NCBI RefSeq assembly: GCF_054482595.1
Contig: NZ_JBTHVH010000004.1
DNA length: 64,000 bases
Strand: one strand, 5' to 3'
DNA from: a plasmid
A program made the position numbers and the translations under genes. Positions 6,001-45,605 of this stretch are shown here, piece by piece (within the stretch, counting starts at the first letter, position 1; each line of letters begins with the position of its first letter). The notes beneath the pieces were generated by a model. It worked only from the letters and a program-made list of their open reading frames with translations, made no database searches and was not told the origin of the DNA.

Positions 6001-6055
6001 TGGAGCACCTCAAAAACACCATCATACACTAAATCAGTAAGTTGGCAGCATCACC

Positions 6056-6233
6056 CGACGCACTTTGCGCCGAATAAATACCTGTGACGGAAGATCACTT
6101 CGCAGAATAAATAAATCCTGGTGTCCCTGTTGATACCGGGAAGCCCTGGGCCAACTTTTGGCGAAAATGAGACGTTGATCGGCACGTAAGAGGTTCCAAC
6201 TTTCACCATAATGAAATAAGATCACTACCGGGC
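6056..6233. promoter_or_regulatory. Tn9 catA1 upstream/promoter fragment. The cat ORF itself is absent.
   Basis: cgacgcactttgcgccgaataaatacctgtgacggaagatcacttcgcagaataaataaatcctggtg...aagatcactaccgggcg immediately follows the IS1 end. Confidence 0.6.
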
Positions 6234-7621: not shown

Positions 7622-7702
7622 TGATAGTTTGGCTGTGAGCAATTATGTGCTTAGTGCATCTAACGTCAAAATCAGCGGCGCGTTTTTATGCGTCCGCTGG
7701 AT

Positions 7703-8524
7703 TTACTTGTTGTGCGGCGTCGCAGACTCATTGAACAACCTTTTTGCCTGCGCAATTACAGTTCTCGGAAGCTCGATATTCAGAGGTTCTGTCACGCTCT
7801 TGAACAATTCGAGACTCCACGTCCACGTTTGATGATAGGCTGCACATAGTGCTCTTGGTTCTGCACTGCTTGTGCATGCCAGATAGCGATTATACGAGTC
7901 CTCCGAGATATCCTTTTCGAGCGCGCGTGAAGGTGTCGGCCAGTGGTCTGTTGCCCCTTCGTGGAGTCGAACCAGCTTGAGTAGGTTTTCATGTGCTTTG
8001 CTGAGCAAAGCCCAGGCGCGAGCGTACTCTCCCCGATTTAAAAGATTGGCCCCAAAGAGCATCAGGCTGATGAGGTTCAACACAAGCCCTTCCACCAGCG
8101 GCGCGCCTTCACGTATCGGGGGACCGCCCACGAGAGCGCTTGCGTACCTTGACAACTCTCCTGATCGGTCCAACAAAACAGCCGCCTCAAGCGAGGGAAA
8201 CCACCCATAGCCTTGCCAAGTGGAAATGACCGGTATGTCCGATTTTCGCATGAAATGGAATTCACCGCGAATGCCGTTTTCAAAAAGTGCGGTGTGGTGG
8301 CCGAAGTCGTCCGGAAAGTAAGCAGCAACCGGACTTACGGCATTAAGCCACGAGCGCTGATCGAAATTTTCAAAATGGTCATCCTGGATGAACACTGCGA
8401 ATTCGATATCAGAGAACTCGTCACCCTCTCCGATAGCAAATGAGCCGAACATCAATGCCGCGATTATTCGTGCATCCTCATGACAACCTTCCTTGAAGAG
8501 TTCGATCATTTTCAGTTGAAGCAT
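7703..8524 (-). CDS. lnu(F): Lincosamide nucleotidyltransferase Lnu(F), the second cassette
   Basis: 273-aa product MLQLKMIELFKEGCHEDARIIAALMFGSFAIGEGDEFSDIEF... with an aagga RBS. Confidence 0.85.
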   Translation of the reverse strand: MLQLKMIELFKEGCHEDARIIAALMFGSFAIGEGDEFSDIEFAVFIQDDHFENFDQRSWLNAVSPVAAYFPDDFGHHTALFENGIRGEFHFMRKSDIPVISTWQGYGWFPSLEAAVLLDRSGELSRYASALVGGPPIREGAPLVEGLVLNLISLMLFGANLLNRGEYARAWALLSKAHENLLKLVRLHEGATDHWPTPSRALEKDISEDSYNRYLACTSSAEPRALCAAYHQTWTWSLELFKSVTEPLNIELPRTVIAQAKRLFNESATPHNK

Positions 8525-9597: not shown

Positions 9598-9716
9598 GAA
9601 AACCGCCACTGCGCCGTTACCACCGCTGCGTTCGGTCAAGGTTCTGGACCAGTTGCGTGAGCGCATACGCTACTTGCATTACAGCTTACGAACCGAACAG
9701 GCTTATGTCCACTGGG
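9598..9716 (+). pseudogene. intI1: intI1, 5' 119 bp only, cut by IS26
   Basis: atgaaaaccgccactgcgccgttaccaccgctgcgttcggtcaaggttctggaccag...gtccactggg then ggcactgttgcaaa. Confidence 0.85.
9683..9711 (-). promoter_or_regulatory. Integron cassette promoter Pc, weak variant (TGGACA-17 bp-TAAGCT)
   Basis: Plus-strand agctta at 9683-9688 and tgtcca at 9706-9711. The IS26 junction is 6 bp beyond the -35. Confidence 0.6.
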
Positions 9717-10536
9717 GGCACTGTTGCAAATAGTCGGTGGTGATAAACTTATCATCCCCTTTTGCTGATGGAGCTGCACATGAACCCATTCAAAGGCCGG
9801 CATTTTCAGCGTGACATCATTCTGTGGGCCGTACGCTGGTACTGCAAATACGGCATCAGTTACCGTGAGCTGCAGGAGATGCTGGCTGAACGCGGAGTGA
9901 ATGTCGATCACTCCACGATTTACCGCTGGGTTCAGCGTTATGCGCCTGAAATGGAAAAACGGCTGCGCTGGTACTGGCGTAACCCTTCCGATCTTTGCCC
10001 GTGGCACATGGATGAAACCTACGTGAAGGTCAATGGCCGCTGGGCGTATCTGTACCGGGCCGTCGACAGCCGGGGCCGCACTGTCGATTTTTATCTCTCC
10101 TCCCGTCGTAACAGCAAAGCTGCATACCGGTTTCTGGGTAAAATCCTCAACAACGTGAAGAAGTGGCAGATCCCGCGATTCATCAACACGGATAAAGCGC
10201 CCGCCTATGGTCGCGCGCTTGCTCTGCTCAAACGCGAAGGCCGGTGCCCGTCTGACGTTGAACACCGACAGATTAAGTACCGGAACAACGTGATTGAATG
10301 CGATCATGGCAAACTGAAACGGATAATCGGCGCCACGCTGGGATTTAAATCCATGAAGACGGCTTACGCCACCATCAAAGGTATTGAGGTGATGCGTGCA
10401 CTACGCAAAGGCCAGGCCTCAGCATTTTATTATGGTGATCCCCTGGGCGAAATGCGCCTGGTAAGCAGAGTTTTTGAAATGTAAGGCCTTTGAATAAGAC
10501 AAAAGGCTGCCTCATCGCTAACTTTGCAACAGTGCC
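9717..10536 (+). mobile_element. IS26 copy 2
   Basis: IRs at 9717 and 10523-10536, with tnp26 at 9762-10484. Confidence 0.95.
9762..10484 (+). CDS. tnp26: IS26 transposase
   Basis: Identical 240-aa product. Confidence 0.95.
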   Translation: MLMELHMNPFKGRHFQRDIILWAVRWYCKYGISYRELQEMLAERGVNVDHSTIYRWVQRYAPEMEKRLRWYWRNPSDLCPWHMDETYVKVNGRWAYLYRAVDSRGRTVDFYLSSRRNSKAAYRFLGKILNNVKKWQIPRFINTDKAPAYGRALALLKREGRCPSDVEHRQIKYRNNVIECDHGKLKRIIGATLGFKSMKTAYATIKGIEVMRALRKGQASAFYYGDPLGEMRLVSRVFEM

Positions 10537-12711: not shown

Positions 12712-13033
12712 GACTTTTCCTCCCGTTATCAAACCCTGTTGTAAACTGTGATCGGCGACGCATCCCCTCCCGGCCTCACCTCATCACCGGCTAAAAAGCG
12801 CATTTTTTGCGTTTAGCCTGCCATCGGAAACCTGCGCCTCGCCACACTAATCCCCGCTCTATGTTACCCCTTTTTTGAAATCATTTAGCAATCCAATAAC
12901 ATTTCATCCCCCCGGAAAAAGCGGGCTAAAAATCGCCTTATTGAAGACCAAATCAGCACCGACATTACAGCATAAAGACATAAATAAACGCCCTAAAAAG
13001 ACTAAATCACAGAGCTATATCCTAAATAATTAC

Positions 13034-14594
<1,561 letters not shown>

Positions 14595-16964: not shown

Positions 16965-16988
16965 TAATAATAGTAAGGGTCTTCTGGT

Positions 16989-17808
16989 GGCACTGTTGCA
17001 AATAGTCGGTGGTGATAAACTTATCATCCCCTTTTGCTGATGGAGCTGCACATGAACCCATTCAAAGGCCGGCATTTTCAGCGTGACATCATTCTGTGGG
17101 CCGTACGCTGGTACTGCAAATACGGCATCAGTTACCGTGAGCTGCAGGAGATGCTGGCTGAACGCGGAGTGAATGTCGATCACTCCACGATTTACCGCTG
17201 GGTTCAGCGTTATGCGCCTGAAATGGAAAAACGGCTGCGCTGGTACTGGCGTAACCCTTCCGATCTTTGCCCGTGGCACATGGATGAAACCTACGTGAAG
17301 GTCAATGGCCGCTGGGCGTATCTGTACCGGGCCGTCGACAGCCGGGGCCGCACTGTCGATTTTTATCTCTCCTCCCGTCGTAACAGCAAAGCTGCATACC
17401 GGTTTCTGGGTAAAATCCTCAACAACGTGAAGAAGTGGCAGATCCCGCGATTCATCAACACGGATAAAGCGCCCGCCTATGGTCGCGCGCTTGCTCTGCT
17501 CAAACGCGAAGGCCGGTGCCCGTCTGACGTTGAACACCGACAGATTAAGTACCGGAACAACGTGATTGAATGCGATCATGGCAAACTGAAACGGATAATC
17601 GGCGCCACGCTGGGATTTAAATCCATGAAGACGGCTTACGCCACCATCAAAGGTATTGAGGTGATGCGTGCACTACGCAAAGGCCAGGCCTCAGCATTTT
17701 ATTATGGTGATCCCCTGGGCGAAATGCGCCTGGTAAGCAGAGTTTTTGAAATGTAAGGCCTTTGAATAAGACAAAAGGCTGCCTCATCGCTAACTTTGCA
17801 ACAGTGCC
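16989..17808 (+). mobile_element. IS26 copy 4, flanked by an 8-bp direct repeat cttctggt
   Basis: IRs at 16989 and 17795-17808. cttctggt sits at 16981-16988 and again at 17809-17816. Confidence 0.95.
17034..17756 (+). CDS. tnp26: IS26 transposase
   Basis: Identical product. Confidence 0.95.
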   Translation: MLMELHMNPFKGRHFQRDIILWAVRWYCKYGISYRELQEMLAERGVNVDHSTIYRWVQRYAPEMEKRLRWYWRNPSDLCPWHMDETYVKVNGRWAYLYRAVDSRGRTVDFYLSSRRNSKAAYRFLGKILNNVKKWQIPRFINTDKAPAYGRALALLKREGRCPSDVEHRQIKYRNNVIECDHGKLKRIIGATLGFKSMKTAYATIKGIEVMRALRKGQASAFYYGDPLGEMRLVSRVFEM

Positions 17809-17919
17809 CTTCTGGTTTCATGTTGAACAAAGAAGACCCTTTAGCTTCTGTAATCCATTTAATCAGTCTGAATGAAATAGATTATAAATTCTGCTCTGCA
17901 TACCTGCTTAACCAAAGTC

Positions 17920-18272: not shown

Positions 18273-18491
18273 GATCGGTGAACTGATCTTCCGTCTATGC
18301 CCTTAAATAAGTGCTGATGAACATTTTTTCACCGCATTACCGCATTTAGGTTATTGCATTTAATCTATCGCATATAGGCTATGTCGTTCATTGTGTGCCG
18401 TCACGTTTAGATTATGGTGTCAGGGTATACCCTTATGCGATAACCATTTTTGTTAAAAATAACGCATCGAATAATTTATGAGGAAAACTAT

Positions 18492-21479
18492 ATGGCAAGG
18501 AGGCAGATTCTTTCTCTGTCGGAAAGAGAATCATTACTGGCATTACCGGACGATGAGTTAACGCTGACCCGAATGGCCTATTTCAGTGAGCATGATCTGG
18601 CGCTTATCAGTGCTCACCGTAAACCCGCCAGCCGTTTTGGTTTTGCCGTCCTTCTTTGCTATCTGAAAAATGTCGGCTTTGCCCCGGATAAAAAAATCTC
18701 TCCCTCTGATGCGCTGCTGAAGCATATCGCCAGCAGGCTAAAGCTTACCGGGGATCTCTGGCCTGCTTACCTTTCCGGCCGGGATACGACCCTGCGTGAG
18801 CATTTAACCGAACTGTACCGCTATCTTGGCGTAAAGGCGTTCACCGGCAAAATACAGCAGGACTGTATTACGCACCTGTTATCGATGGCGACGCGCACCG
18901 ATAAAGGCATTCTCCTAGCCGAAGAGTTACTTGTCTATCTCCGGCAGAACAACGTGATAATCCCCGCGATTGATGTCGTGGAGCGTACCTGTGCTGAAGT
19001 CATGGCAGGCGGCGATAAAATCGTATTTCAGACCCTGAATGCCCCGTTAACTCCGGCTCACAGGGATGCCCTGGATCATTTACTTGAGTCATCAGATAAT
19101 CAGCCTTCCAGGCTGACATGGCTTCTGCAACCGCCGGGTAAAATCAATGGTAAGAACGTGCTGCAACATCTTGATCGGCTCAGCAGCATTGAATCGCTGG
19201 CATTACCTGAAGGTATAGATCGTACCATTCACCAGAACCGGTTGCTGAAACTGGCGCGGGAAGGCCGAAAGATGAGTAGCCGGGATTTGACCCGATTTTC
19301 AGCTGCCCGGCGTCATGCGATCCTGGTGTGCGTGCTGGAAGAAGCCAGAGCCACACTGACAGACGAAGTGATTGAGCTGCATGAGCGAATGCTGAATAGT
19401 CTTTTCAGCAAAGCCAAACGAACACAGGCTGAGCGCCTTCAGCAGACCGGAAAGCTGATCCAGTCAAAACTGAGGCAGTACATCGATGTCGGTCAGGCGC
19501 TGTCTGATGCCCGTGATTCCGGTGGCGATCCCTGGCTCGCAATAGAAAACATACTCCCATGGGCTGAATTTGTCGCCAGTCTGGATGAAACACGCCATCT
19601 CGCCAGAAAAAATAATTTTGACCCGCTGCATATTATTACCGAGAAATACAGCACATTACGGAAATATGCCCCACGCATGTTGTCCGCTTTACAGTTAGTC
19701 GCAACCCCGGCAGCGCAACCTCTGGCTGATGCACTGGTTGTGATCAAGGATATGTACCGGAAGCAGTCACGTAAAGTTCCGGCGGCAGCGCCGCTTGAGT
19801 TTGTCCCTGAAAGCTGGCGCAAGGTGGTGATTACACCTGTGGGTATTGACCGGCAGTACTATGAGTTTTGTGCACTCAGCGAGCTTAAGGGGGCGTTGCG
19901 CTCCGGGGATATCTGGGTTAAAGGCTCGCGCCGCTACAAAAATTTTGATGATTACCTCATACCCGAGAAGGACTTTGACAAACTCACACCGGCACTGCCA
20001 CTGCCCGTATCTGCTGATTATCATGAGTACATTACCAGCCGTATGACCCTGCTTCAGTCCAGACTTGAAGAGGTCAATGCCATGGCTGCCCTTGGTGAAC
20101 TGCCCGATGTGGAAATATCCGACAGGGGCGTAAAAGTCTCTCCGCTGGATAACTGCGTTCCGGCGCAGGTTTCACCGCTGGCAGAGCTGGTTTACAGCAT
20201 GCTACCGCGACCTAAAATCACGGAAATTCTCGATGAGGTAAACAGCTGGACGACGTTTACCCGACATTTTTCGCATATAAAAAATGACATTACCCGTCCC
20301 GATACCCGCTTGCTCCTCACCACCATTCTTGCGGATGGCATCAATCTTGGCCTGACCAAAATGGCAGAAGCCTGCCCCGGGAGCACCAAATCATCACTCG
20401 AAGATATTCAGGCATGGTACATCCGTGACGAAACCTATTCAGCCGCTCTTGCAGAGCTGGTAAATGCGCAGGGGAAAAGACCGTTGGCGGCATTTTGGGG
20501 AGACGGAACAACGTCATCATCAGATGGACAAAATTTCAGAACCGGCAGCTCAGGCCGCTACGCAGGGCAGGTTAACCCGAAATATGGGCAAGAGCCTGGA
20601 CGTCAGTTTTATACCCATATTTCGGATCAATACAGCCCGTTTTACACCTGCATAATCAGTCGGGTCAGGGATTCAACCCATGTTCTCGATGGCTTGCTGT
20701 ACCACGAAAGCGACCTGGAAATCAGGGAACATTACACCGATACCGCTGGTTTCACCGATCATGTCTTTGCCCTGATGCATCTGTTGGGATTTGCGTTCTG
20801 TCCGCGAATCAGGGATCTCCACGACAAAAAACTGTTTATCAAAGGGAAAGCAGAGAAATACCCGGCGCTTCAGTCACTGATATCAACGACCAGCCTGAAT
20901 CTGAAAGAGATCGAAATCCACTGGCGTGAAGTGCTGCGTCTGGCAACCTCGATAAAGCAGGGAACCGTGACGGCATCCCTGATGCTGAAAAAGCTTGCCA
21001 GCTATCCCAAGCAAAACGGACTTGCCAAAGCACTGAGAGAAATTGGCCGCATTGAGCGAACCCTGTTTATGCTCGACTGGTTCCGCGACCCGGCTCTGCG
21101 TCGGCGGGTACAGGCGGGGCTGAATAAAGGCGAAGCCCGTAACGCGCTGGCGCGTGCGGTATTTATGCACCGACTGGGAGAAATCAGGGACAGAAAACCG
21201 GAAAATCAGAGCTATCGCGCCAGTGGACTGACGCTGCTGACGGCTGCCATATCCCTGTGGAATACCGTCTATATGGAAAGAGCGGTCGATGCCCTGAAGC
21301 GTAAAGGGGTGAAGATCAACGAGCAACTGCTGTCGCATTTGTCGCCGTTGGGCTGGGAACACATCAATCTGACAGGTGATTATATCTGGAAAAGCAACCG
21401 GATACCGGCTTCTGGTAAGTTTCGTCGGCTAAGACCAGCTAAAGTCGAAAGGTCAAAAAACAGCCTTAACGTACAATAA
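18492..21479 (+). CDS. tnpA: Tn3-family transposase (995 aa) of an unrecognised member
   Basis: The N-terminus [19 protein letters not shown]... resembles the Tn21 subgroup, with full DDE region motifs. The gene ends inside a 38-bp IR. Confidence 0.85.
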   Translation: MARRQILSLSERESLLALPDDELTLTRMAYFSEHDLALISAHRKPASRFGFAVLLCYLKNVGFAPDKKISPSDALLKHIASRLKLTGDLWPAYLSGRDTTLREHLTELYRYLGVKAFTGKIQQDCITHLLSMATRTDKGILLAEELLVYLRQNNVIIPAIDVVERTCAEVMAGGDKIVFQTLNAPLTPAHRDALDHLLESSDNQPSRLTWLLQPPGKINGKNVLQHLDRLSSIESLALPEGIDRTIHQNRLLKLAREGRKMSSRDLTRFSAARRHAILVCVLEEARATLTDEVIELHERMLNSLFSKAKRTQAERLQQTGKLIQSKLRQYIDVGQALSDARDSGGDPWLAIENILPWAEFVASLDETRHLARKNNFDPLHIITEKYSTLRKYAPRMLSALQLVATPAAQPLADALVVIKDMYRKQSRKVPAAAPLEFVPESWRKVVITPVGIDRQYYEFCALSELKGALRSGDIWVKGSRRYKNFDDYLIPEKDFDKLTPALPLPVSADYHEYITSRMTLLQSRLEEVNAMAALGELPDVEISDRGVKVSPLDNCVPAQVSPLAELVYSMLPRPKITEILDEVNSWTTFTRHFSHIKNDITRPDTRLLLTTILADGINLGLTKMAEACPGSTKSSLEDIQAWYIRDETYSAALAELVNAQGKRPLAAFWGDGTTSSSDGQNFRTGSSGRYAGQVNPKYGQEPGRQFYTHISDQYSPFYTCIISRVRDSTHVLDGLLYHESDLEIREHYTDTAGFTDHVFALMHLLGFAFCPRIRDLHDKKLFIKGKAEKYPALQSLISTTSLNLKEIEIHWREVLRLATSIKQGTVTASLMLKKLASYPKQNGLAKALREIGRIERTLFMLDWFRDPALRRRVQAGLNKGEARNALARAVFMHRLGEIRDRKPENQSYRASGLTLLTAAISLWNTVYMERAVDALKRKGVKINEQLLSHLSPLGWEHINLTGDYIWKSNRIPASGKFRRLRPAKVERSKNSLNVQ

Positions 21480-22139: not shown

Positions 22140-22768
22140 CAGCGATAACGCTTGAAATAGCCCGCTTTGGTCATCATGAAATTAGCCATCTGACTGGCGA
22201 TTTGATTGTATCTTACTCATAGTGCCCTACCTATAGGTTAAAAAGGGGCATTTTCGCTTTATAGCGTGTTCAGCAGCATCAATCCTCCCAAGAAAGGCTG
22301 GCTTATTAAGCCGGTCCATCATTTTCTGTATATCTCTCATCAATTTTTATATCCGCCCTGGAGTGCACCGTTCAAGCACACCGATTAGGCAGATAGTCAC
22401 TAGTTAACTCTTTACTAGTGACTAAATTCCATTGATATACGTGACAACGTCACGTCATGAAAGCTTTTAAATGCCTATTTTTCATACAATGGGATTTAAT
22501 TAGGAGTAAATCCCATAGGCTTACATAAGGATGACAATTAAAAGCGTTAAATATCAACCAGATAGAATGATTACCCCCAATTAATGGGCTCATCACATTA
22601 TTTCACTGGCTGGGGTTATTGCTGGCATATCTGAAAGTGCTAATATGTTAGTCATTAGTAATTAGTAAAGCCTTTACTAAACGCGTTTCTACGTAAATTC
22701 TATAGGTTTTATAGTGTCCTACCTTTGCTCAAATCAAAATGTTCTGACATACCAAAATGGAGTGTAAA
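22140..22768. promoter_or_regulatory. AT-rich non-coding region carrying several perfect inverted repeats
   Basis: tagtcactagt-N9-actagtgacta at 22394-22424, acgtgac-aac-gtcacgt at 22439-22455, and ttagtaaag-c-ctttactaa at 22662-22680. Confidence 0.45.
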
Positions 22769-23587
22769 ATGACTCAAAACCAGGGTTCTGAGCCAGTACC
22801 GGCGAGCCGGACAGGGCAGCTCATCAGCGCCCGGGATATGGCCATGCAGAAATTCGAAGAAGGGATGCGGTTAATCTCGGAAGCGTCGGAACTGTGCGGT
22901 CTCTCTCTCTTCACCAGCAGAATTATGCAGCCCAACGCATTTGGTCTTCCGTCGTCACTGGATCGCACCATCGAGGAGGGGCGTAAGGAAATTGACCGTA
23001 AAACGTGGAAAAGGCTCTTTGAAGAAACAGGTATGGACCGGTACTGGAACCATAAGCAAAAAGAAGCCTTTAACGAATCCCTTCGTACGGATCCGCCCGT
23101 CGCTTCCCTGGAGATTGTTAAGGGAACATTACAGCATGCACTGGCTAACAGACGAGACACCCTTGCAGAAGGTTTCGTTGATGTTCTCAACAAGCTTGAC
23201 CGAAGTTTCAAAAGCAATGCCAGGCAATATACAATGCCAAAAAAGCTTGTTCTTCGGGGGATTTTTCCTGGTGTGAACGTGCTGAGGTACAACGGTTTCT
23301 CGCAGGACAATCACTTTTGTTTACGCGACTTTGAGAATATTGTATGCATCTGTTCTGATACTCCAACACCTGCAACCGGCGGTGGGCTGAGTATGGTCGA
23401 CAGGCTGACGGCCATGAGAAATACAGAATTCACAGGCGAGGTCAGTGATGAGAATGGCTGGCGGTGTCGCCTGTTTGAGAATGGAAACGTTCATATTTGC
23501 ATCGACAGTATCTCGCTTCTGAATGCTCTGAACGATCTTATCAGCATATATTTTGCAAACCAGCTTCCGGCCGCAGGAAAAAAATGA
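22769..23587 (+). CDS. Hypothetical protein (272 aa)
   Basis: ORF with a ggagtg RBS; function not recognised. Confidence 0.5.
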   Translation: MTQNQGSEPVPASRTGQLISARDMAMQKFEEGMRLISEASELCGLSLFTSRIMQPNAFGLPSSLDRTIEEGRKEIDRKTWKRLFEETGMDRYWNHKQKEAFNESLRTDPPVASLEIVKGTLQHALANRRDTLAEGFVDVLNKLDRSFKSNARQYTMPKKLVLRGIFPGVNVLRYNGFSQDNHFCLRDFENIVCICSDTPTPATGGGLSMVDRLTAMRNTEFTGEVSDENGWRCRLFENGNVHICIDSISLLNALNDLISIYFANQLPAAGKK

Positions 23588-24789
23588 TGATTGAAAATGA
23601 TAAAGAAAAAAGCCTGAACGATGCTACCCCGCCAGAGGTGCAGAATGACATCCGCAGCGAATCCACTGAAAAATCAAAGGAAATGGGTCGTTCAAGGTAC
23701 TCATCTATCGCGATGATCGATTACTTCAATGCAATCGAACGTCTGTGCAAAGAGAAAGAAATTAACCCGGAAAATATCGATCTGAGCTTCAAAGTTCACT
23801 GGCTCAGAAACGCTGTTGGCGGCTCGTTTGCAAGGTCACAGGAGATGTTCGCGGAGTACCAGAAGTATGTTAAAGAGGTTCCTGAAGAGGCCCGTTACCT
23901 GGATATACCCGATGAGGTAAAGGTTGCACTCGGCGATATTATCTCGTACATCACCTGGCACTACCGTAGAAGCTATACCGCAATACAGAATGATAGTGTT
24001 AAAAAAGCTGAAGCACGTAGCATGCAGCTGGAGGAGGAGGTAACGCAGCTGTTACAGCGGCTTGAGCAAAGCGCTACCGATATGGATGAGCTGAAACTTG
24101 AGAATCAGGCACTACAGGGTCGATTAGAGATCCGGGACAGTACCGTCAAGGAGTTAGAAACAAGGCTGAATGTTGCCGAAGCAGAACTCGAAACCTGCCA
24201 TCACCAGTTAGATAGCACACGGCATGAATTGAGCCTCGCACAGCAGTCAAATGACTCACTCTCCCAGCAACTGGCTGAACGTAAAACAGAGATCGCTGGT
24301 CACCTTGAATATCAAAAAAAGCTGAACGAAGAGATCAACACGCAGCGTTCTGATAACGCCGGTCTTTCCAGACAATGCGACCAGTTAAGTCAGACTGTGT
24401 CAGATACAAAGGCAGAGAGGGACAGGTTTGAACAGGAATTGATTGCTGCACAGAACCTTTGTACTGAGCTGAAAAGTGCACTGTCCGGGAAAGAGGGTGA
24501 CCTGGTGGCGGTGAATGCCGAGCTTACTGAACTCCATAAACTAAACGAGTCGCTGAGCGCCGACCTGAATAAAGTAACTTTGGTCAGCCAGGGCTATGAA
24601 GCGGAAGTGGCTGAACAAAGCAATGAACTCAAAACGCTCCAGGCCAAAGTAATGAAGCTGGAAGCTACCCTGGAGGCGGAGAAAACAATCTCAGAATCCC
24701 TAAAAGGCACCATTGATACATTAACTGGTGCAATGGCAGGGGGAGGTACTGGAAAGTCAAAACAGCCGCGTAGCAGAAAAACATCATGA
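23584..24789 (+). CDS. Coiled-coil protein (401 aa). It has an N-terminal globular domain plus a long heptad-rich region and resembles KfrA or SMC proteins.
   Basis: Its start overlaps the upstream stop as ATGATGA. The region is rich in Q/E/L/K repeats: LEEEVTQLLQRLEQSATDMDELKLENQALQGRLE... Confidence 0.55.
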   Translation: MMIENDKEKSLNDATPPEVQNDIRSESTEKSKEMGRSRYSSIAMIDYFNAIERLCKEKEINPENIDLSFKVHWLRNAVGGSFARSQEMFAEYQKYVKEVPEEARYLDIPDEVKVALGDIISYITWHYRRSYTAIQNDSVKKAEARSMQLEEEVTQLLQRLEQSATDMDELKLENQALQGRLEIRDSTVKELETRLNVAEAELETCHHQLDSTRHELSLAQQSNDSLSQQLAERKTEIAGHLEYQKKLNEEINTQRSDNAGLSRQCDQLSQTVSDTKAERDRFEQELIAAQNLCTELKSALSGKEGDLVAVNAELTELHKLNESLSADLNKVTLVSQGYEAEVAEQSNELKTLQAKVMKLEATLEAEKTISESLKGTIDTLTGAMAGGGTGKSKQPRSRKTS

Positions 24790-24852
24790 TAAATGAAGCC
24801 AGGTTGATACACTTCTCTGCATCCCCTGGCACATAAGAACTTCTGCGGACAT

Positions 24853-25056
24853 TCAGCCCGTCCGCAGGAGTTTTCGTCCTTCAGTCAACAAATGCACTAC
24901 CTTTTTTGAGTCTCCACTTTCCAGAGCAGAAAACACGTTACCGATTCTACCAACAGCTTGTATCTGAGTGATAACCCCAGTCTTGTAATCATCTAGGATC
25001 CCTGACAGGAAAGCGTTCAGTTTTGTCTGTTCGCTTAGCGAAAGCATGTAGGACAT
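24853..25056 (-). CDS. Small hypothetical protein (67 aa), possibly the last gene of the dcm-like operon
   Basis: ORF starting 12 nt after the DUF1173-like stop. Confidence 0.25.
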   Translation of the reverse strand: MSYMLSLSEQTKLNAFLSGILDDYKTGVITQIQAVGRIGNVFSALESGDSKKVVHLLTEGRKLLRTG

Positions 25057-25068
25057 TTTTTCTCCATT

Positions 25069-26388
25069 TTAAGCAGGTGTGTCAGTTGAAAGAGGTTTGC
25101 GTGATTCTGGAAAATGAGGCAGCACCATAGTTTCAGATGCTGTGGTCGCATCCCAGTGCCACCATCCATAAGGCCCATATTCACGGTTGTAATAATCTTT
25201 TTTGAGTTGCTTTCGGGCCAGATAAGCAGGAGTGGCCATACCAAATACTTCCATCGGGAACGGCTTATCGCTTTTTGTGTCGAGCAGGTAGAAGTCAGGG
25301 AACACCTCACTAATACTCGCATCATAACGCATGGGCTTAACGTACTGCCGGTGCTCTGCATCCAGCTTTTCTGCAACAACCGCCTCATAGGAGGAGTCCA
25401 GAGGTATCCAGTTCTCGCTAACGTGCATCAGCACAATTTGATGAGCTCTTACAGAAGGGCCTCTGCCGGTTACCGCAGCTGGTGACGTCAACGCAAAGAC
25501 AACTATTTTCGCCCCGGATTTCCATGCTGCGTACTCCGATGAAAATCGTTTCTTTACGCTATCCCAATGGACTTCTGAATTGAAAAAAATCAGCGGTAGC
25601 CCCCCAAAATTCCGCAGGGGTAAAAATTTAAGTGGCTTCTCATGCTTTTCAGCATCGTAGCGAGGTAAAACTGACAGGAGCATGAGACGTTTATCACTCA
25701 TCGCCTGTGATGAAAGACGCTGAATTTGCGACTGAGCGACAGGTTGTTTCGGGTCAGGTACACCAATGAATAAATGGTCACCTATGCAGGCTCTGCCGGT
25801 ACGAATTTGTTTAGCGGTTTCAAGCAGACGATACCGTACCAGTGAATCGTTACGTTTCCCTGCCATTTTCGGGTACCAGACATTCAGACCAGACTCTGTC
25901 CACAAAAGACTAAGCAAGCCCAGGAGGGTCATTGAGGCCTGACCTCCTTCTGGTCGCTGAACATGGGGCAGGGGAGGCACTTCTGATTTTTCAGGAGGAT
26001 CTTTCTCTGTCATACCGATACCGAGCCTTACAGCCATATCACCTTCGGTTGTAATCCGGACCACACCACTCGCATATCCTTTCAGGCCGGTATGCCGGGC
26101 ATCAAGGGAGAAGAATACACAGGAAGGATCATGCTCAATGCCCGTGTTAGCGGCTTTGACGAGAATAAAGGCATCACCGTTCGGTAAAGCACGAACATAA
26201 AGTCGCTTTTCTCCTTTTCCACGACATCCGCAGGTGATGACTGATTTTTGACCTGAGGTGTGGTGTGCCTTTTTAAGAGCCGACTGCCACCCTTTAGCAA
26301 ACTCATCCTGCGTTTGAAAGTCAGGTGAATACCTTTTGACGTTTGGATCGTCGTCGTAAGCAATCATCACTGCGAATTTTTGGCTCAT
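25069..26388 (-). CDS. DUF1173-like protein (439 aa)
   Basis: Length and content look like the ~400-aa DUF1173 family. This is from memory and needs profile confirmation. Confidence 0.45.
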   Translation of the reverse strand: MSQKFAVMIAYDDDPNVKRYSPDFQTQDEFAKGWQSALKKAHHTSGQKSVITCGCRGKGEKRLYVRALPNGDAFILVKAANTGIEHDPSCVFFSLDARHTGLKGYASGVVRITTEGDMAVRLGIGMTEKDPPEKSEVPPLPHVQRPEGGQASMTLLGLLSLLWTESGLNVWYPKMAGKRNDSLVRYRLLETAKQIRTGRACIGDHLFIGVPDPKQPVAQSQIQRLSSQAMSDKRLMLLSVLPRYDAEKHEKPLKFLPLRNFGGLPLIFFNSEVHWDSVKKRFSSEYAAWKSGAKIVVFALTSPAAVTGRGPSVRAHQIVLMHVSENWIPLDSSYEAVVAEKLDAEHRQYVKPMRYDASISEVFPDFYLLDTKSDKPFPMEVFGMATPAYLARKQLKKDYYNREYGPYGWWHWDATTASETMVLPHFPESRKPLSTDTPA

Positions 26389-26410
26389 AGTAGTCTCCTA
26401 AACAGGAAGT

Positions 26411-26578
26411 TTAATATCCCAACCAGAGCAACACTTCCTGAGCGTCATACTGTTCCTTTACGCCCATGTCGCTAAAGAATTCTTCGAAATCTGTTTCGGG
26501 AACGCAATGCCTGGACAGTTCTTGTAATGCTCGTTCTTTAGATACCGTCTCACCTTCAGCTGATTCGAAATACGTCAT
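26411..26578 (-). CDS. Small acidic protein (55 aa) between the MTase and the DUF1173 gene
   Basis: MTYFESAEGETVSKERALQELSRHCVPETDFEEFFSDMGVKEQYDAQEVLLWLGY. It is below the ORF-track cutoff and was found by reading the sequence. Confidence 0.35.
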   Translation of the reverse strand: MTYFESAEGETVSKERALQELSRHCVPETDFEEFFSDMGVKEQYDAQEVLLWLGY

Positions 26579-26638
26579 GGTTGACCTCTGACATTATTAC
26601 AACAATCTTAAGCATTTAAATTGATGAAGGAGCTCAGG

Positions 26639-28066
26639 TCAGCTGACTTCGTCGTAAAACTGCCGCAAGCGCTGGGAGGCTGCAAATTCAATTCGTGACT
26701 TCAGCAGTTTGGCGACGGCCGCAAAGACATCAACGACCACGGAGTTCCCAAACTGTCTGTAAGCCTGTGTATTGGACACAGGGATACGGAAAACACTTTC
26801 CCCGGGTTTATCGAAGCCCATTAGCCTGCTGCATTCACGTGGCGTTAGCATGCGTGGCCGACGGTCCATGTTGTATGTGTTATGGAAATCAGTTTCTCCC
26901 AGTTCATGAGACCAGCCCCGATCAATAAGAATTTCAGATCCGTCTTTCATATAGCGGCTTGAGAGGGTTATGGTGACACTATTAACATTGGAAGGATCTA
27001 CTAGTCCAAAACCAAAACCATTGCCTTTTGCCGCATGTTTCTTTGCATAGTTGTATAAGTACTCCCAGAGTTTAGGGGAGAGGATGTATTTACTATCTAC
27101 GCTCGGATCCAGTAAATCTGAGAGAGAAGGGCGCTTGTCCGGATAAAAGTCTTTAATGTCTCTCAGAGTAAAACCGTCTTTCAGACGTAGGTCGCGGCGA
27201 AAACCAATAAGGACGATACGTTCACGGTGCTGGGGTCGGAAATGACGGCCATCGATGACTTTAGGATCATCCGCGCCCGTGCTTTCGCTGTTTGCGACGT
27301 CGTAGCCAAGCTCATCGAGCGTTTTCATGATGATGTTAAAGGTATTACCCTTATCGTGACTCTTCAGATTTTTTACGTTTTCCAGAACAAAAATTGCAGG
27401 TTGTTTTGCCCGGATGATCCTGGCCACATCAAAGAAGAGCGTACCCTGAGTGTCGCACTCGAAACCGTGTTTGCGACCCATAGAGTTCTTTTTACTGACA
27501 CCGGCGATGCTGAATGGCTGGCATGGAAATCCCGCAAGAAGAACATCATGATCCGGGATAGAGGCATCGATAAATTTGTATGCCTCGTCATCAGTAACCT
27601 CGGGCCGGTTGCTAAGAGTGATGTCACGGATGTCTGAATTGAAGCGGTGCTCGTTCTCATCGCAATACCAGTTCGCCCGGTAAGTACGGCTGGAATAAGT
27701 ATTCCATTCGCTCGTGAAAAGACATTTACCACCGATGGCATCAAATCCGCTTCGCAGTCCACCTATCCCTGCAAACAGATCGATAAAGCTAAAGTGCCTG
27801 TCCTCATAATCAGCAGGTCGTGAAGGTATTAAAGTCTGTAGATAGCGTCCATCTGCGATACTCAGCTCACAATGCTCAGGTATGCATGTAACCTGACGTT
27901 TAAGGGATGCACGGGACCAATTACTGCCATTTTCATCATTTAATACCTGAGCCAGATATTTCAGGTCATAAATGGTCGAAGCTGTTAACAAAGTTTTGTG
28001 GATCAGAGATGGTGTTTTATCCACATCATTCAGGTCTGTCTCAAGATCATGAGTGTAACGTTTCAT
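26639..28066 (-). CDS. dcm: DNA-cytosine C5-methyltransferase, Dcm family (likely CCWGG-specific)
   Basis: Carries the motifs [24 protein letters not shown] and QRER. Alignment to E. coli Dcm is near-colinear at about 70-75% identity by eye. Confidence 0.85.
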
Positions 28067-28277
28067 CCAAACTCTCTCAGGAATAATATCTTTGAGATAG
28101 ATTAACACGCTTAATTTGGATTATTTTTTGGTTCAGGTTCTAAATTTATTGTGATTATTCTGCCTTTAAGTTGCAAAAAGATTGGTTTTAAGCCCGCCCA
28201 TGAAATAATGACTTGTTAAAATACTGCCTGTAAATAGGCTTGTGGATACATGTCTGTACTCAACAAATCAAGGTGAA

Positions 28278-28796
28278 ATGATGTTTTTTTTAACAAAGTT
28301 ACTTTTGCCCATCATGATTGTTGTATTCCCAGTGGCGTCCTGGGGGAACTCAACAACTTTTGAGGCAAAGGTGGTTAAGATTGTTGACGGTGACACCATA
28401 ACTGCGTTGGATGCTCAAAACACAACCATCAAAATACGGATGTATGGTATAGACGCTCCTGAATCTAAACAGGCTTTTGGCCAAAAAGCAAAACAGGCCT
28501 TAACCACAGCTATAGCAACTAAAATCGTTACCGTGATAGACCATGGTACGGATATCTATGGCCGTATGTTAGGTACCATCTGGTTAGATGGATATGATAT
28601 CAATGCCTCTATGGTGGACAGTGGATATGCGTGGGTTTATCGGTTCGAAGATAACGCCATTGTCCCTGGCTATATCAAATATGAATCCGCAGCACAAAAG
28701 GAGGCAAAAGGGTTATGGGCAGACACCAACCCTGTCCCACCATGGCAGTGGAGACAGGCAAACGAAAAGCCCAGAAAGGTGAAAGAGAAGAAATAA
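28278..28796 (+). CDS. nuc: Secreted thermonuclease-family (SNase-like) endonuclease
   Basis: Signal peptide MMFFLTKLLLPIMIVVFPVASW. SNase motifs are VDGDT...R, YGIDAPE and GRMLG...Y. Confidence 0.7.
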   Translation: MMFFLTKLLLPIMIVVFPVASWGNSTTFEAKVVKIVDGDTITALDAQNTTIKIRMYGIDAPESKQAFGQKAKQALTTAIATKIVTVIDHGTDIYGRMLGTIWLDGYDINASMVDSGYAWVYRFEDNAIVPGYIKYESAAQKEAKGLWADTNPVPPWQWRQANEKPRKVKEKK

Positions 28797-33448: not shown

Positions 33449-33486
33449 GGGGAGCCCGCAGAATTCGGAAAAAATCGTACGCTAAG
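33449..33486. repeat. Tn1721 38-bp IRR
   Basis: ggggagcccgcagaattcggaaaaaatcgtacgctaag. Confidence 0.8.
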
Positions 33487-35302
33487 GTTTTCCGGGCATC
33501 CGTAAGGGCCGAAACTTCCCGTCTTCCAGTCTGCGGCTCTGCCGCCAGACGTAATCGCCGGTTAGGTTGATGTGCTCCCAGCCCAGCGGCGACAGGAATT
33601 GCAGCAGCTCGCCGTCCACCGGCTTGCCGGCCTCGACCAACCCCTGGGTGGCGCGTTCCAGGTACACCGTGTTCCACAGCACGATAGCCGCCGTCACCAG
33701 GTTGAGGCCGCTGGCCCGGTAGCGCTGCTGCTCGAAGCTCCGATCCCTGATTTCCCCAAGGCGGTTGAAGAACACCGCCCTGGCCAGCGAGTTGCGCGCC
33801 TCACCTTTGTTCAGGCCGGCATGCACGCGGCGGCGCAGTTCAACACTTTGCAGCCAGTCCAGGATGAACAGCGTGCGCTCGATCCGGCCCAGCTCGCGCA
33901 GGGCCACGGCCAGTCCGTTCTGGCGCGGGTAGCTGCCGAGCTTGCGCAGCATCAGCGAGGCGGTGACGGTGCCCTGCTTGATCGAGCTGGCCAGGCGCAG
34001 GATGTCGTCCCAGTGGGCACGCACGTGCTTGATGTTCAGGGTGCCGCCGATCAGCGGGCGCAACGTCGGGTAGGCTTGCACGCCCTGCGGCACGTACAGC
34101 TTGGTTTCGCCGAGGTCGCGGATGCGCGGCGCGAAGCGGAAGCCTAGCAGGTGCATCAGGGCAAAGACGTGATCGGTGAAGCCGGCCGTGTCGGTGTAGT
34201 GCTCCTCGATCCGCAGGTCGGACTCGTGGTACAGCAGGCCGTCGAGCACATAGGTGGAATCGCGGACGCCGACATTCACCACGCGGGTGCTGAACGGCGC
34301 GTACTGGTCGGAGATATGGGTATAGAACAGCCGTCCCGGCTCGCTACCGTACTTCGGGTTGACGTGCCCGGTGCTCTCGCCCCGGCCACCCGCGCGGAAG
34401 CGCTGGCCATCGGAGGATGAGGTCGTGCCGTCGCCCCAGTGGGCGGCAAAGGCGTGGCGATACTGGTGGTTGACCAGCTCGGCCAAGGCCGCCGAATAGG
34501 TTTCGTCGCGGATGTGCCAGGCTTGCAGCCAGGACAGCTTGGCGTAGGTCAGGCCGGGGCTCGACTCGGCCATCTTGGTCAGCCCGAGGTTGATCGCATC
34601 ACCGAGGATTGCGGACAGCAGCAACGTCCTGTCTTTGGCCTCGGCCCCGTCCTTCAAGTGGGTGAAGTGGCGGCTGAAGCCCGTCCAGTCGTCCACGTCC
34701 ATCAGCAGTTCGGTGATCTTGATGCGCGGCAGTAACTGGCTGGTTTGGTCGATCAGCGCCTGCGCCCGATCCGGCACCGCCGCATCCAGCGGGGTGATTT
34801 TCAGCCCTGACTCGGTGAGGATGGCATCGGGCAGCTCGTTGTCCTTGGCCAGGCGGGTGACGGTGGCCAACTGCTCGTCCAGCAGCTGCAAACGCTCTTC
34901 CAGGTACTGGTCGCTGTTCGGGTTGATCGCCAGGGGCAGGGCCTGCTCGCGCTTGAGTGCGGCGAACTTCTCGGCCGGCAGCAGGTAGTCGTCGAAGTCG
35001 CGGAACTGCCGCGAGCCCTTGACCCAGATGTCGCCGGAGCGCAGGGCGTTCTTCAGCTCGGACAGGGCGCAGATTTCGTAGAATTTCCGGTCGAGGCCTT
35101 CCGGGGTGATCACCAGCGGCTTCCAGCGCGGCTTGATGAAGGCCGTGGGTGCATCGGCCGGCACCTTGCGCAGGTTGTCGGCGTTCATCTCACGCAGGGT
35201 CTGCACGGCTGCCAGCACGCCTTGCGCGGCCGGCCCGTGCTGTTCCCCAACTTTTCGCTCGGCGAAGAGTATGAACATGCGCCGCCGGCGACGAATCGCC
35301 AA
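33482..35302 (-). pseudogene. tnpA: Tn1721 ΔtnpA (3' ~60% of a Tn21-family transposase)
   Basis: 606-aa C-terminal translation ...[33 protein letters not shown], collinear with the Tn21 TnpA at 59496-62447. Confidence 0.8.
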
Positions 35303-36682: not shown

Positions 36683-37584
36683 TCAGCGATCGGCTCGTTG
36701 CCCTGCGCCGCTCCAAAGCCCGCGACGCAGCGCCGGCAGGCAGAGCAAGTAGAGGGCAGCGCCTGCAATCCATGCCCACCCGTTCCACGTTGTTATAGAA
36801 GCCGCATAGATCGCCGTGAAGAGGAGGGGTCCGACGATCGAGGTCAGGCTGGTGAGCGCCGCCAGTGAGCCTTGCAGCTGCCCCTGACGTTCCTCATCCA
36901 CCTGCCTGGACAACATTGCTTGCAGCGCCGGCATTCCGATGCCACCCGAAGCAAGCAGGACCATGATCGGGAACGCCATCCATCCCCGTGTCGCGAAGGC
37001 AAGCAGGATGTAGCCTGTGCCGTCGGCAATCATTCCGAGCATGAGTGCCCGCCTTTCGCCGAGCCGGGCGGCTACAGGGCCGGTGATCATTGCCTGGGCG
37101 AGTGAATGCAGAATGCCAAATGCGGCAAGCGAAATGCCGATCGTGGTCGCGTCCCAGTGAAAGCGATCCTCGCCGAAAATGACCCAAAGCGCGGCCGGCA
37201 CCTGTCCGACAAGTTGCATGATGAAGAAGACCGCCATCAGGGCGGCGACGACGGTCATGCCCCGGGCCCACCGGAACGAAGCGAGCGGGTTGAGAGCCTC
37301 CCGGCGTAACGGCCGGCGTTCGCCTTTGTGCGACTCCGGCAAAAGGAAACAGCCCGTCAGGAAATTGAGGCCGTTCAAGGCTGCCGCGGCGAAGAACGGA
37401 GCGTGGGGGGAGAAACCGCCCATCAGCCCACCGAGCACAGGTCCCGCGACCATCCCGAACCCGAAACAGGCGCTCATGAAGCCGAAGTGCCGCGCGCGCT
37501 CATCGCCATCAGTGATATCGGCAATATAAGCGCCGGCTACCGCCCCAGTCGCCCCGGTGATGCCGGCCACGATCCGCCCGATAT
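36683..37584 (-). pseudogene. tetA(A): tetA(A), 5'-truncated (lacks ~100 N-terminal codons)
   Basis: Identical to the 3' 0.9 kb of the intact copy at 51931-53130. It ends ...RRGLWSGAGQRADR and is cut at ...LYIGRIVAG by the Tn2 IRR. Confidence 0.85.
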
Positions 37585-37731: not shown

Positions 37732-38970
<1,239 letters not shown>

Positions 38971-39153
38971 GTCCTGCGAATATGTGAGTTTTGACCTAAT
39001 GAGCCACAAAAACTCATTTTCGCCCACGATAATTTTTCTACTTCCTTTCTTTGGAATGCTCATTTCAATATTCACATAACGTCGCTATCAATCGCGGAAA
39101 AGGCGTAGTGCGCGAAGCGAACGAAGCTTTTTGCCGTCGATTGCATAGCTTTG

Positions 39154-43779: not shown

Positions 43780-44785
43780 ATGAAAACCGCCACTGCGCCG
43801 TTACCACCGCTGCGTTCGGTCAAGGTTCTGGACCAGTTGCGTGAGCGCATACGCTACTTGCATTACAGCTTACGAACCGAACAGGCTTATGTCCACTGGG
43901 TTCGTGCCTTCATCCGTTTCCACGGTGTGCGTCACCCGGCAACCTTGGGCAGCAGCGAAGTCGAGGCATTTCTGTCCTGGCTGGCGAACGAGCGCAAGGT
44001 TTCGGTCTCCACGCATCGTCAGGCATTGGCGGCCTTGCTGTTCTTCTACGGCAAGGTGCTGTGCACGGATCTGCCCTGGCTTCAGGAGATCGGAAGACCT
44101 CGGCCGTCGCGGCGCTTGCCGGTGGTGCTGACCCCGGATGAAGTGGTTCGCATCCTCGGTTTTCTGGAAGGCGAGCATCGTTTGTTCGCCCAGCTTCTGT
44201 ATGGAACGGGCATGCGGATCAGTGAGGGTTTGCAACTGCGGGTCAAGGATCTGGATTTCGATCACGGCACGATCATCGTGCGGGAGGGCAAGGGCTCCAA
44301 GGATCGGGCCTTGATGTTACCCGAGAGCTTGGCACCCAGCCTGCGCGAGCAGCTGTCGCGTGCACGGGCATGGTGGCTGAAGGACCAGGCCGAGGGCCGC
44401 AGCGGCGTTGCGCTTCCCGACGCCCTTGAGCGGAAGTATCCGCGCGCCGGGCATTCCTGGCCGTGGTTCTGGGTTTTTGCGCAGCACACGCATTCGACCG
44501 ATCCACGGAGCGGTGTCGTGCGTCGCCATCACATGTATGACCAGACCTTTCAGCGCGCCTTCAAACGTGCCGTAGAACAAGCAGGCATCACGAAGCCCGC
44601 CACACCGCACACCCTCCGCCACTCGTTCGCGACGGCCTTGCTCCGCAGCGGTTACGACATTCGAACCGTGCAGGATCTGCTCGGCCATTCCGACGTCTCT
44701 ACGACGATGATTTACACGCATGTGCTGAAAGTTGGCGGTGCCGGAGTGCGCTCACCGCTTGATGCGCTGCCGCCCCTCACTAGTG
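43780..44785 (+). CDS. intI1: Class 1 integron integrase IntI1. IS26 replaces the last 2-3 codons.
   Basis: [57 protein letters not shown]... runs to ...[10 protein letters not shown] and then directly into the IS26 IR. Confidence 0.9.
43867..43895 (-). promoter_or_regulatory. Integron Pc promoter, weak variant
   Basis: Plus-strand agctta at 43867-43872 and tgtcca at 43890-43895, with 17-bp spacing. Confidence 0.6.
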
Positions 44786-45605
44786 GGCACTGTTGCAAAG
44801 TTAGCGATGAGGCAGCCTTTTGTCTTATTCAAAGGCCTTACATTTCAAAAACTCTGCTTACCAGGCGCATTTCGCCCAGGGGATCACCATAATAAAATGC
44901 TGAGGCCTGGCCTTTGCGTAGTGCACGCATCACCTCAATACCTTTGATGGTGGCGTAAGCCGTCTTCATGGATTTAAATCCCAGCGTGGCGCCGATTATC
45001 CGTTTCAGTTTGCCATGATCGCATTCAATCACGTTGTTCCGGTACTTAATCTGTCGGTGTTCAACGTCAGACGGGCACCGGCCTTCGCGTTTGAGCAGAG
45101 CAAGCGCGCGACCATAGGCGGGCGCTTTATCCGTGTTGATGAATCGCGGGATCTGCCACTTCTTCACGTTGTTGAGGATTTTACCCAGAAACCGGTATGC
45201 AGCTTTGCTGTTACGACGGGAGGAGAGATAAAAATCGACAGTGCGGCCCCGGCTGTCGACGGCCCGGTACAGATACGCCCAGCGGCCATTGACCTTCACG
45301 TAGGTTTCATCCATGTGCCACGGGCAAAGATCGGAAGGGTTACGCCAGTACCAGCGCAGCCGTTTTTCCATTTCAGGCGCATAACGCTGAACCCAGCGGT
45401 AAATCGTGGAGTGATCGACATTCACTCCGCGTTCAGCCAGCATCTCCTGCAGCTCACGGTAACTGATGCCGTATTTGCAGTACCAGCGTACGGCCCACAG
45501 AATGATGTCACGCTGAAAATGCCGGCCTTTGAATGGGTTCATGTGCAGCTCCATCAGCAAAAGGGGATGATAAGTTTATCACCACCGACTATTTGCAACA
45601 GTGCC
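44786..45605 (-). mobile_element. IS26 copy 6
   Basis: IRs at 44786 and 45592-45605. Confidence 0.95.
44838..45560 (-). CDS. tnp26: IS26 transposase
   Basis: Identical product. Confidence 0.95.

Follow-up and report, generated by a model that had tools for sequence, protein, structure and literature searches.

Orphan dcm genes have already been described on large conjugative resistance plasmids. IncA/C plasmids harbor the orphan genes dcm1-3 (PMC11628540), and, with a donor devoid of Dcm, the deletion of one dcm gene from the IncC plasmid pKAZ3 raised its sensitivity to EcoRII about 2700-fold (PMC11602122). The chromosomal counterpart is the dcm gene of Escherichia coli K-12, whose 3' end is overlapped by vsr in the locus that we retrieved. 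Here, we analyze an operon embedded in a plasmid stretch of 64,000 nucleotides (nt) (contig NZ_JBTHVH010000004.1 of assembly GCF_054482595.1; the whole stretch is hereafter called the window), in which the gene coding for a Dcm-family C5-cytosine methyltransferase (MTase) is followed by those for an acidic protein of 55 amino acids (aa), a 439-aa DUF1173 protein, and a 67-aa product. Orphan plasmid methylases are known, the operon is annotated in more than 1000 sequenced plasmids, and DUF1173 is known as a family. According to the data reported below, we consider it probable, with clear reservations, that this conserved backbone operon of the IncHI1 and IncHI2 plasmids consists of an orphan Dcm-type anti-restriction MTase and of three co-transcribed passengers, rather than of an MTase and its dedicated partners.

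The orphan Dcm-type methyltransferase

Four consecutive open reading frames (ORFs) lie on the minus strand between positions 24853 and 28108, separated by gaps of 60, 22, and 12 nt according to the ORF list and to the reading of the DNA; an earlier model-made note on the window, based on its letters alone (the original prediction), had placed four co-oriented ORFs with gaps of 12-60 nt at the same coordinates and on the same strand. The MTase gene spans positions 26639-28066 (475 aa, ATG start), within an ORF that is open up to a GTG at 28108 (489 aa). Since a Shine-Dalgarno-like GAGAG precedes the ATG at 28066, and not the GTG at 28108, and since this ATG is also the RefSeq start, the true 5' end of the gene is probably 28066, which gives a protein of 475 residues. 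The MTase gene is followed by those for the 55-aa acidic protein, a member of phrog_25588 (26411-26578), and for the DUF1173 protein (25069-26388), and then by the 67-aa ORF (24853-25056), which are preceded by the Shine-Dalgarno-like sequences AGAGG, TAGGAG, and TGGAGA (the last one 6 nt upstream of the start), respectively. Judging from this layout, the four genes are likely co-transcribed.

The MTase matched PF00145 (E 1.4e-74; 251.8 bits, cutoff 22), TIGR00675 (334.6 bits), the NCBIfam Dcm subfamily PRK10458 (841.4 bits, cutoff 710), and the Dcm N-terminal domain PF18284. Its alignment with K-12 Dcm extends over 438 aa with 65% identity and no gaps, the variable region between motifs VIII and IX included, and motifs I, IV (with Cys182), VI (LENV), VIII (QHRER), and X (FGNSV) are all present and aligned with those of the K-12 enzyme; the near-colinearity with Dcm and the complete set of C5-MTase motifs that the original prediction had described were both recovered. 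Because the gapless alignment covers the variable region, CCWGG is very likely the target of this MTase, as far as can be judged from its sequence.

The absence of the chromosomal dcm-vsr arrangement, also pointed out in the original prediction, was borne out: probing the window with the K-12 Vsr sequence (tblastn) did not retrieve any vsr homologue, the best match having an E value of 0.2 and lying away from the operon. Furthermore, the profile searches with Pfam, NCBIfam, and PADLOC revealed no known restriction endonuclease family beside the MTase, whose top PADLOC model is oMTase, that is, an orphan methyltransferase. The MTase shares with K-12 Dcm and M.EcoRII the C5 motifs and, with Dcm, the gapless alignment and the N-terminal domain, whereas it differs from both the K-12 dcm-vsr pair and M.EcoRII in being plasmid-borne, with no vsr after it and no EcoRII-like endonuclease adjacent to it; unlike K-12 dcm, it precedes three unrelated mobile-element genes. 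Like the orphan dcm genes of the IncA/C plasmids, it is a stand-alone C5-MTase gene in the backbone of a large conjugative resistance plasmid, but it belongs to another plasmid family (MOBH/MPF_F) and lies in another neighborhood. It is a new representative of the orphan Dcm-type methylases encoded by plasmids, a kind that is well known. The searchable literature holds annotations only, and no experiment, on the dcm gene of IncHI plasmids; the dcm gene of pKAZ3 is taken here as the working model for it.

On this model, the MTase would methylate the inner cytosine of CCWGG on both plasmid and host DNA. This methylation would shield the plasmid from EcoRII-type restriction upon transfer from or into hosts lacking a matching methylation, and it would also guard against the post-segregational attack of EcoRII-type systems. 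The plasmid MTase could manage without a vsr gene of its own because its enterobacterial hosts would supply Vsr. The genes coding for the DUF1173, 55-aa, and 67-aa proteins would ride along as co-transcribed passengers, DUF1173 acting apart from cytosine methylation.

A different role for the same enzyme is conceivable, i.e., that of an epigenetic regulator, chiefly of plasmid or host genes (for example, those for transfer or of the stationary phase), rather than of an anti-restriction factor. Hosts usually carry a chromosomal Dcm, so that the plasmid copy is partly redundant for protection, which would fit a regulator better; this redundancy, however, vanishes in dcm-negative hosts, exactly where protection counts, and no regulatory site dependent on CCWGG is known, nor did one turn up here. 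The loss of Dcm from the donor lowers the transfer of RIP113 10-fold even without restriction, and regulatory roles of plasmid methylases have been noted (PMC11602122). These findings point to regulation, but the only direct data on a plasmid dcm gene, reported in the same paper, revealed a large anti-EcoRII effect. All things considered, a chiefly regulatory MTase appears quite improbable to us.

Conservation of the operon and of its gene order

The plasmid origin proposed for the window agrees with the typing of a representative record, pSTM6-275, which is IncHI2A, MOBH, and MPF_F. The 3.5-kb operon block is at least 99% identical in 1133 plasmid records of PLSDB, mainly conjugative, 200-300 kb in size, and from Escherichia, Salmonella, Enterobacter, and Klebsiella; moreover, it is present in 289 out of 5426 complete E. 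coli genomes, nearly always on plasmids. The replicon of the window has the backbone of an IncHI2 plasmid, and the backbone stretch that carries the operon (approximately 21.5-33 kb of the window) is bordered by resistance and transposon DNA, with cmlA, floR, and Tn3-family transposase genes. Among the main vehicles of multidrug resistance in Salmonella, E. coli, and Enterobacter are the IncHI1 and IncHI2 plasmids, and the window itself harbors cmlA, floR, and seven copies of IS26. If the anti-restriction role is true, a backbone MTase pre-protecting the plasmid against EcoRII-type restriction would help account for the broad host spread of the IncHI group.

The same four genes are found in IncHI1, where the identity of their products with those of the window is 69% (MTase), 61% (55-aa protein), 80% (DUF1173), and 60% (67-aa protein). 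According to Nei-Gojobori counts, synonymous change is saturated in all four genes (pS 0.71-0.92) and nonsynonymous change is limited (pN 0.12-0.24), that is, all of them are under purifying selection; among the four proteins, DUF1173 is under the strongest constraint. The 67-aa ORF, which the original prediction listed as a possible one, turned out to be a real gene. It is unannotated in the IncHI2 RefSeq record, and its IncHI1 orthologue (WP_000323423) is annotated at the same position; the two differ with a pN of 0.24 and a pS of 0.71, corresponding to a dN/dS of about 0.13. In other loci, its place is taken by unrelated ORFs, of 144-148 aa in two metagenomic IncHI-like contigs (L002 and L003) and of 56 aa in a Buttiauxella contig (L048), and the gene is specific to the IncHI1/IncHI2 lineage. 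Neither Pfam nor PHROG returned a match for it, nor did Pfam for the 55-aa protein (Pfam being searched up to E 10), and PADLOC-DB v2 gave zero matches for both proteins.

The 55-aa protein, annotated in RefSeq as WP_000220758, is as acidic as predicted, with 13 aspartate and glutamate residues versus four lysines and arginines. It was modelled as a compact, confidently folded four-helix domain with two short strands, and it aligned over its full length with phrog_25588 (E 1.8e-24; residues 1-55 on positions 1-53 of the 53 of the profile). Two homologues, each 54% identical to it, were retrieved, one from a phage-like contig, right after the terminase genes (L086, positions 2316-2692), and one beside umuDC and higB (L085, positions 172-354); neither the MTase nor DUF1173 is present alongside them. 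The 55-aa protein belongs to a small phage/plasmid protein family. In the phage-like contig, the homologue is preceded by a different 67-aa ORF and followed by one that we take to be GP88-like.

As regards gene order, a hypothetical gene and a thermonuclease (SNase) gene diverge from the MTase-small ORF-DUF1173 series, which in turn converges with the genes for a coiled-coil protein and for a DUF4942 protein; this organization is common to IncHI2 and IncHI1. It was also found in metagenomic IncHI-like contigs, whose DUF1173 is 61% identical to that of the window, and, with the SNase gene in place but the coiled-coil gene alone detected of the convergent pair, in the Buttiauxella contig, with a DUF1173 identity of 57%; in both cases, the fourth operon gene differs. 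In Klebsiella megaplasmids, whose DUF1173 is 42% identical, the SNase gene lies directly opposite DUF1173, and the MTase and the small ORF are both absent. The SNase gene is the most persistent neighbor of DUF1173 in enterobacterial plasmids, where it is divergent even in the absence of the MTase.

A tblastn search of plasmids with the DUF1173 protein retrieved 2918 records: 1132 at 99% identity or more (IncHI2), 266 at 80-90% (including IncHI1), and 1491 below 60%, the last ones from Klebsiella, Burkholderia, Pseudomonas, Pantoea, rhizobia, and others. A broader sample of 70 loci, with one genome per species, was then obtained with a degenerate three-motif DNA pattern; this pattern forces PDF, EVFG, and GWW, and the 70 loci are unsuited to judging the conservation of these motifs. 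The synteny counts were restricted to the loci whose flank measured 1.8 kb or more, those with a DUF1173 identity of at least 55% being considered close. MTase genes were detected by tblastn (E < 1) and by an independent search for the PCQ…ENV motif, which was positive in every close locus covering that part of the MTase gene. A C5-MTase gene was found upstream of DUF1173 in all seven close, IncHI-like loci (7/7) and in none of the distant ones, either upstream (0/46) or downstream (0/45). As a pair, the MTase and the 55-aa gene come and go at the base of the IncHI1/IncHI2 clade, and the most parsimonious scenario would be their insertion between DUF1173 and the SNase gene in the ancestor of this clade.

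These data bear on what the original prediction had made of the locus. Its observations (the ORFs, the Dcm identity, and the lack of vsr) hold, but its interpretation as a restriction-modification-like module, in which the partners would act as dedicated nuclease, reader, or regulator, is not supported: no known restriction endonuclease family lies beside the MTase, the distant DUF1173 loci are devoid of it, and the 55-aa family and DUF1173 each occur elsewhere without it.

Several points weigh against an orphan MTase with mere passengers. The MTase-small ORF-DUF1173 order has been kept despite the saturated synonymous divergence, down to a DUF1173 identity of 57%, and such a long conservation might exceed what is expected from pure hitch-hiking, so that some functional coupling in the IncHI clade is conceivable; in addition, it is DUF1173, and not the MTase, that is best conserved (80% versus 69%). 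On the IncHI1 map, hns, hha, HNH genes, Tn10, and RepFIA lie in the vicinity of the operon, but neither tra genes nor oriT were seen in the surrounding 20 kb or so, and the literature yielded nothing specific on this point; a location in the leading region, and hence an early expression in the recipient, would be conjectural. The CCWGG specificity and the anti-restriction effect of the IncHI MTase are themselves predictions, made by sequence comparison and by analogy. Finally, CCWGG sites are not depleted, with 148 observed versus 138 expected in the window and 25 versus 14 in the backbone stretch, which is consistent with protection by methylation, as opposed to the loss of sites, but is weak evidence and no proof.

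Natural insertions in the operon fail to discriminate between the orphan MTase with passengers and the alternatives to it. Among the natural variants of the operon (L089, from pMADE-1, L090, and L091), an IS1203 copy, present in several plasmids, interrupts the MTase gene close to its very 3' terminus, leaving a product of 445 aa and separating it from the downstream genes, and two different IS21-family elements follow DUF1173 closely, within the 67-aa ORF or next to it. As a test of the lethality expected from a restriction-modification system, these insertions were discarded as uninformative, since they include no case with a null MTase and an intact DUF1173, and the hosts carry a chromosomal Dcm.

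Structure, neighbors, and possible roles of the DUF1173 protein

The 439-aa protein, described as DUF1173-like in the original prediction, is a true DUF1173 member, as it matched PF06666 well above the cutoff (E 4.6e-39; 134.8 bits, cutoff 25), with residues 26-393 aligned to positions 7-367 of the 386 of the profile. In the searchable literature, no function is assigned to DUF1173/PF06666, the single informative paper being computational: it reported a zinc motif at the N-terminus (CxCxnHx3-5C) and, at the C-terminus, a domain related to PD-(D/E)XK nucleases but without their canonical signature (Laganeckas et al. 2011, PMC3045609). The protein of the window belongs to the same family and has the same zinc motif and the same signature-less domain. 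What is added here is a confident full-length model, fold matches pointing to the Vsr/RAP/VRR-NUC side of the superfamily, a count of the family (about 2,500 clusters), the near-invariant E335, K351, and D370, and the recognition of a conjugative-element gene with variable neighbors.

According to the model, the protein consists of an N-terminal zinc motif (C53-x-C55…H86-x3-C90), a central region without known relatives, and a C-terminal restriction-endonuclease-like domain (Vsr/RAP/VRR-NUC-like, residues ~330-415). The core of this domain is formed by a helix (333-344), two strands (366-368 and 377-382), a second helix (387-404), and a further strand (410-413), and on this basis E335, P364-D365, and E380-V-F382 occupy the positions of the canonical E…PD…(D/E)xK residues. 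A HMMER search of 1.84 billion representatives yielded 2542 DUF1173 clusters, nearly all of stand-alone proteins of 400-450 aa. To evaluate conservation, 180 diverse representatives were aligned (median identity to the window protein, 30%). All four zinc ligands are invariant; position 335 is acidic in 179 sequences, position 351 is a lysine in 178, and position 370 is an aspartate in 174, with D365 and E380 present in 149 and 151 of them, respectively (about 84%). At position 382, the four commonest residues (F, Y, V, and W) account for 161 out of 180 sequences, and lysine is not among them. This agrees with the earlier remark that no obvious PD-(D/E)xK motif can be seen by eye: in spite of the PD-(D/E)XK-like fold of the C-terminal domain, the canonical motif is broken, with ExF in place of ExK, and a conserved charged cluster is retained. 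A variant active site, with the lysine provided by the end of the first strand (K351), is possible on these grounds.

A Foldseek comparison of the DUF1173 model with the PDB yielded no match at E ≤ 0.001, the weaker ones being OB-fold-like noise, and it detected no structural relative of the N-terminal and central domains; the alignment profiles of the DUF1173 and 55-aa proteins, compared with the PDB sequences, retrieved the Bax1 endonuclease at E 0.4 and otherwise noise. The SRA-like reader previously suggested found no counterpart in the structure and fold searches, which revealed no such fold in the partner proteins.

The Vsr-like ranking of the fold matches, together with the conserved charged residues and with the gene order long kept within the IncHI clade, speaks for a coupled MTase-DUF1173 module in this clade, in which DUF1173 would be a nuclease under the control of CCWGG methylation (restriction-modification-like or methyl-directed) or a Vsr-like enzyme acting on the T:G mismatches that arise from 5mC deamination, in place of vsr. 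Nevertheless, DUF1173 differs from Vsr in many respects: it has no detectable sequence similarity with it (E 28), it lacks the Vsr catalytic histidines and zinc-site residues, it is three times larger, with two extra domains, and no C5-MTase lies near most of its members, as the counts at the distant loci reported above revealed. Furthermore, the same residues are conserved across the 180 members, mostly from distant lineages, where the MTase was not seen next to DUF1173. This makes a coupled module distinctly unlikely. Its most specific form, in which DUF1173 would be an active zinc-finger nuclease family with a rearranged site (E335, D365/D370, E380, and K351), recruited and gated by CCWGG methylation in the IncHI1/IncHI2 clade, is in our opinion very doubtful; if it were true, a CCWGG-gated DUF1173 behind an MTase and an acidic protein would represent a new plasmid module for self/non-self discrimination or mismatch processing.

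The neighborhoods of DUF1173 outside the IncHI clade are diverse. It occurs without an MTase in a Pseudomonas MOBH plasmid, in Burkholderia, and in Novosphingobium, next to an integrase gene in Piscinibacter, and in a ParA-hypothetical-DUF1173 series opposite mobC/traA in Neorhizobium. In a Pseudomonas IncP plasmid (L013, positions 5992-8004), a 670-aa DUF1173 protein is encoded beside umuDC and a ligD-like ligase gene, again with no MTase; it has a C-terminal extension of about 250 aa with a weak AsnC-type helix-turn-helix match (E 6.5e-4, below the cutoff), and it is the sole clear fusion-like variant encountered. In Acetobacteraceae (L020, L026, L046, L061, L069, L072, and L077), DUF1173 is the last gene of a conserved array whose other products are of 466, 237, and 780 aa. 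The 780-aa protein, encoded directly upstream of DUF1173, harbors a Walker A motif (GTTGAGKT) and by eye looks like a type IV coupling protein (IcmO/TraD-like), so that the array points to a possible connection of DUF1173 with conjugative DNA transfer. The clustering of the neighbors identified further lineage-specific partners, namely a UvrD-like helicase operon and a 256-aa hypothetical protein in Pseudomonas, but no universal one, and the Pfam search on the neighbors in other taxa was nearly empty.

Since its neighbors vary and the MTase is absent from the distant loci, DUF1173 is a generic, old, and widespread conjugative-element gene. Moreover, the zinc motif, the nuclease fold with its charged cluster, and the neighboring genes for ParA, relaxase, coupling protein, integrase, and helicase lead us to propose, with modest confidence, that DUF1173 binds or processes DNA in the maintenance or transfer of mobile elements, independently of cytosine methylation. 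It is this family, large, uniform, and confined to mobile elements, with an invariant zinc motif, a near-invariant charged cluster, and a nuclease fold, that is of wider interest, and the IncHI operon offers a convenient genetic handle on it.

A further scenario is that the operon, possibly with the SNase gene, represents an anti-defense or defense island, in which the 55-aa protein would be a protein inhibitor (for instance, of a restriction nuclease or of another immune nuclease), while DNA that enters or competes would be the target of DUF1173. The very acidic nature of the 55-aa protein and its confidently modelled compact domain are in line with this idea, as is the location of the phrog_25588 family in phage and plasmid accessory regions. 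In the Klebsiella plasmids, DUF1173 lies near psiA, hns, the SNase gene, and a PLD-like gene, i.e., in an establishment-type context, and it has been stated in general terms that orphan MTases often cluster with plasmid anti-defense genes (PMC11602122). In PADLOC-DB v2, the DUF1173 protein itself has a single weak match, at the domain level, with the nuclease-like C-terminus of the candidate PDC-S68 (E 8.3e-5, 18.5 bits). Apart from this match, which is not a convincing one, PADLOC provides no model-based support for an island, nor for the uncharacterised defense system put forward in the original prediction, and the leading-region location that would suit an island is the conjectural one discussed above. 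We regard an island of this kind as unlikely.

Putative signals and surroundings of the operon

On the minus strand, a promoter-like site (TTTACA-18-CATTAT) was detected by a consensus scan at 28205-28234, in the divergent intergenic region between the SNase and MTase genes. The scan found six promoter-like sites in the region versus 5.4 expected, that is, the chance level, and it is its position alone that makes this site notable and suggestive. A second consensus match on the same strand, TTTAAA-16-TG-AATAAT at 26593-26620, falls in the 60-nt gap between the MTase and 55-aa genes and might be an internal promoter; a separate promoter serving DUF1173 is plausible because the Klebsiella relatives express DUF1173 without an MTase upstream. 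The best terminator-like hairpin on the minus strand (24843-24867) has a 9-bp stem with six GC pairs and a weak T-tract, AAGTTCTTAT; it overlaps the stop codon of the 67-aa ORF and lies between the two convergent units. Promoter and terminator consensus matches alike arise at about chance frequency in the region, so that these positions alone are suggestive.

The SNase gene (28281-28796, plus strand; PF00565, E 4.6e-24) is divergent from the operon and codes for a protein whose N-terminus bears a signal-like hydrophobic segment; the gene is conserved beside the operon and is given here as context only. It is followed on the same strand by the gene for a protein of about 300 aa that belongs to no family (28715/28799-29695). 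On the other side, two genes on the plus strand converge with the operon: the first one codes for a DUF4942 protein (22757-23587; also phrog_38825, E 2e-100), and the second one for a 430-aa coiled-coil, SMC-like protein (23497-24789). This pair accompanies the operon in IncHI2, IncHI1, and the metagenomic contigs L002 and L003; in the Buttiauxella contig, the coiled-coil gene alone was detected.

The backbone island lies between two Tn3-family transposase genes, a full-length one (18450-21479, plus strand, 1009 aa) and a 5'-truncated one (33482-35302, minus strand, 606 aa, profile positions 384-954), which suggests that the island was trimmed through transposon insertions. Seven IS6-family (IS26-type) copies of about 820 bp, 100% identical to each other and in both orientations, are located at 6794-7617, 9716-10536, 13032-13854, 16987-17811, 38148-38972, 44783-45610, and 62858-63685; their 240-aa ORF matches transpos_IS6, and they cut the window up into resistance modules, which surround the backbone island carrying the operon. 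Lastly, a perfect inverted repeat of 874 nt, distinct from IS26, is present at 36711-37584 and 52229-53102, its arms lying 14.6 kb apart and bracketing the cmlA and IS26 region.

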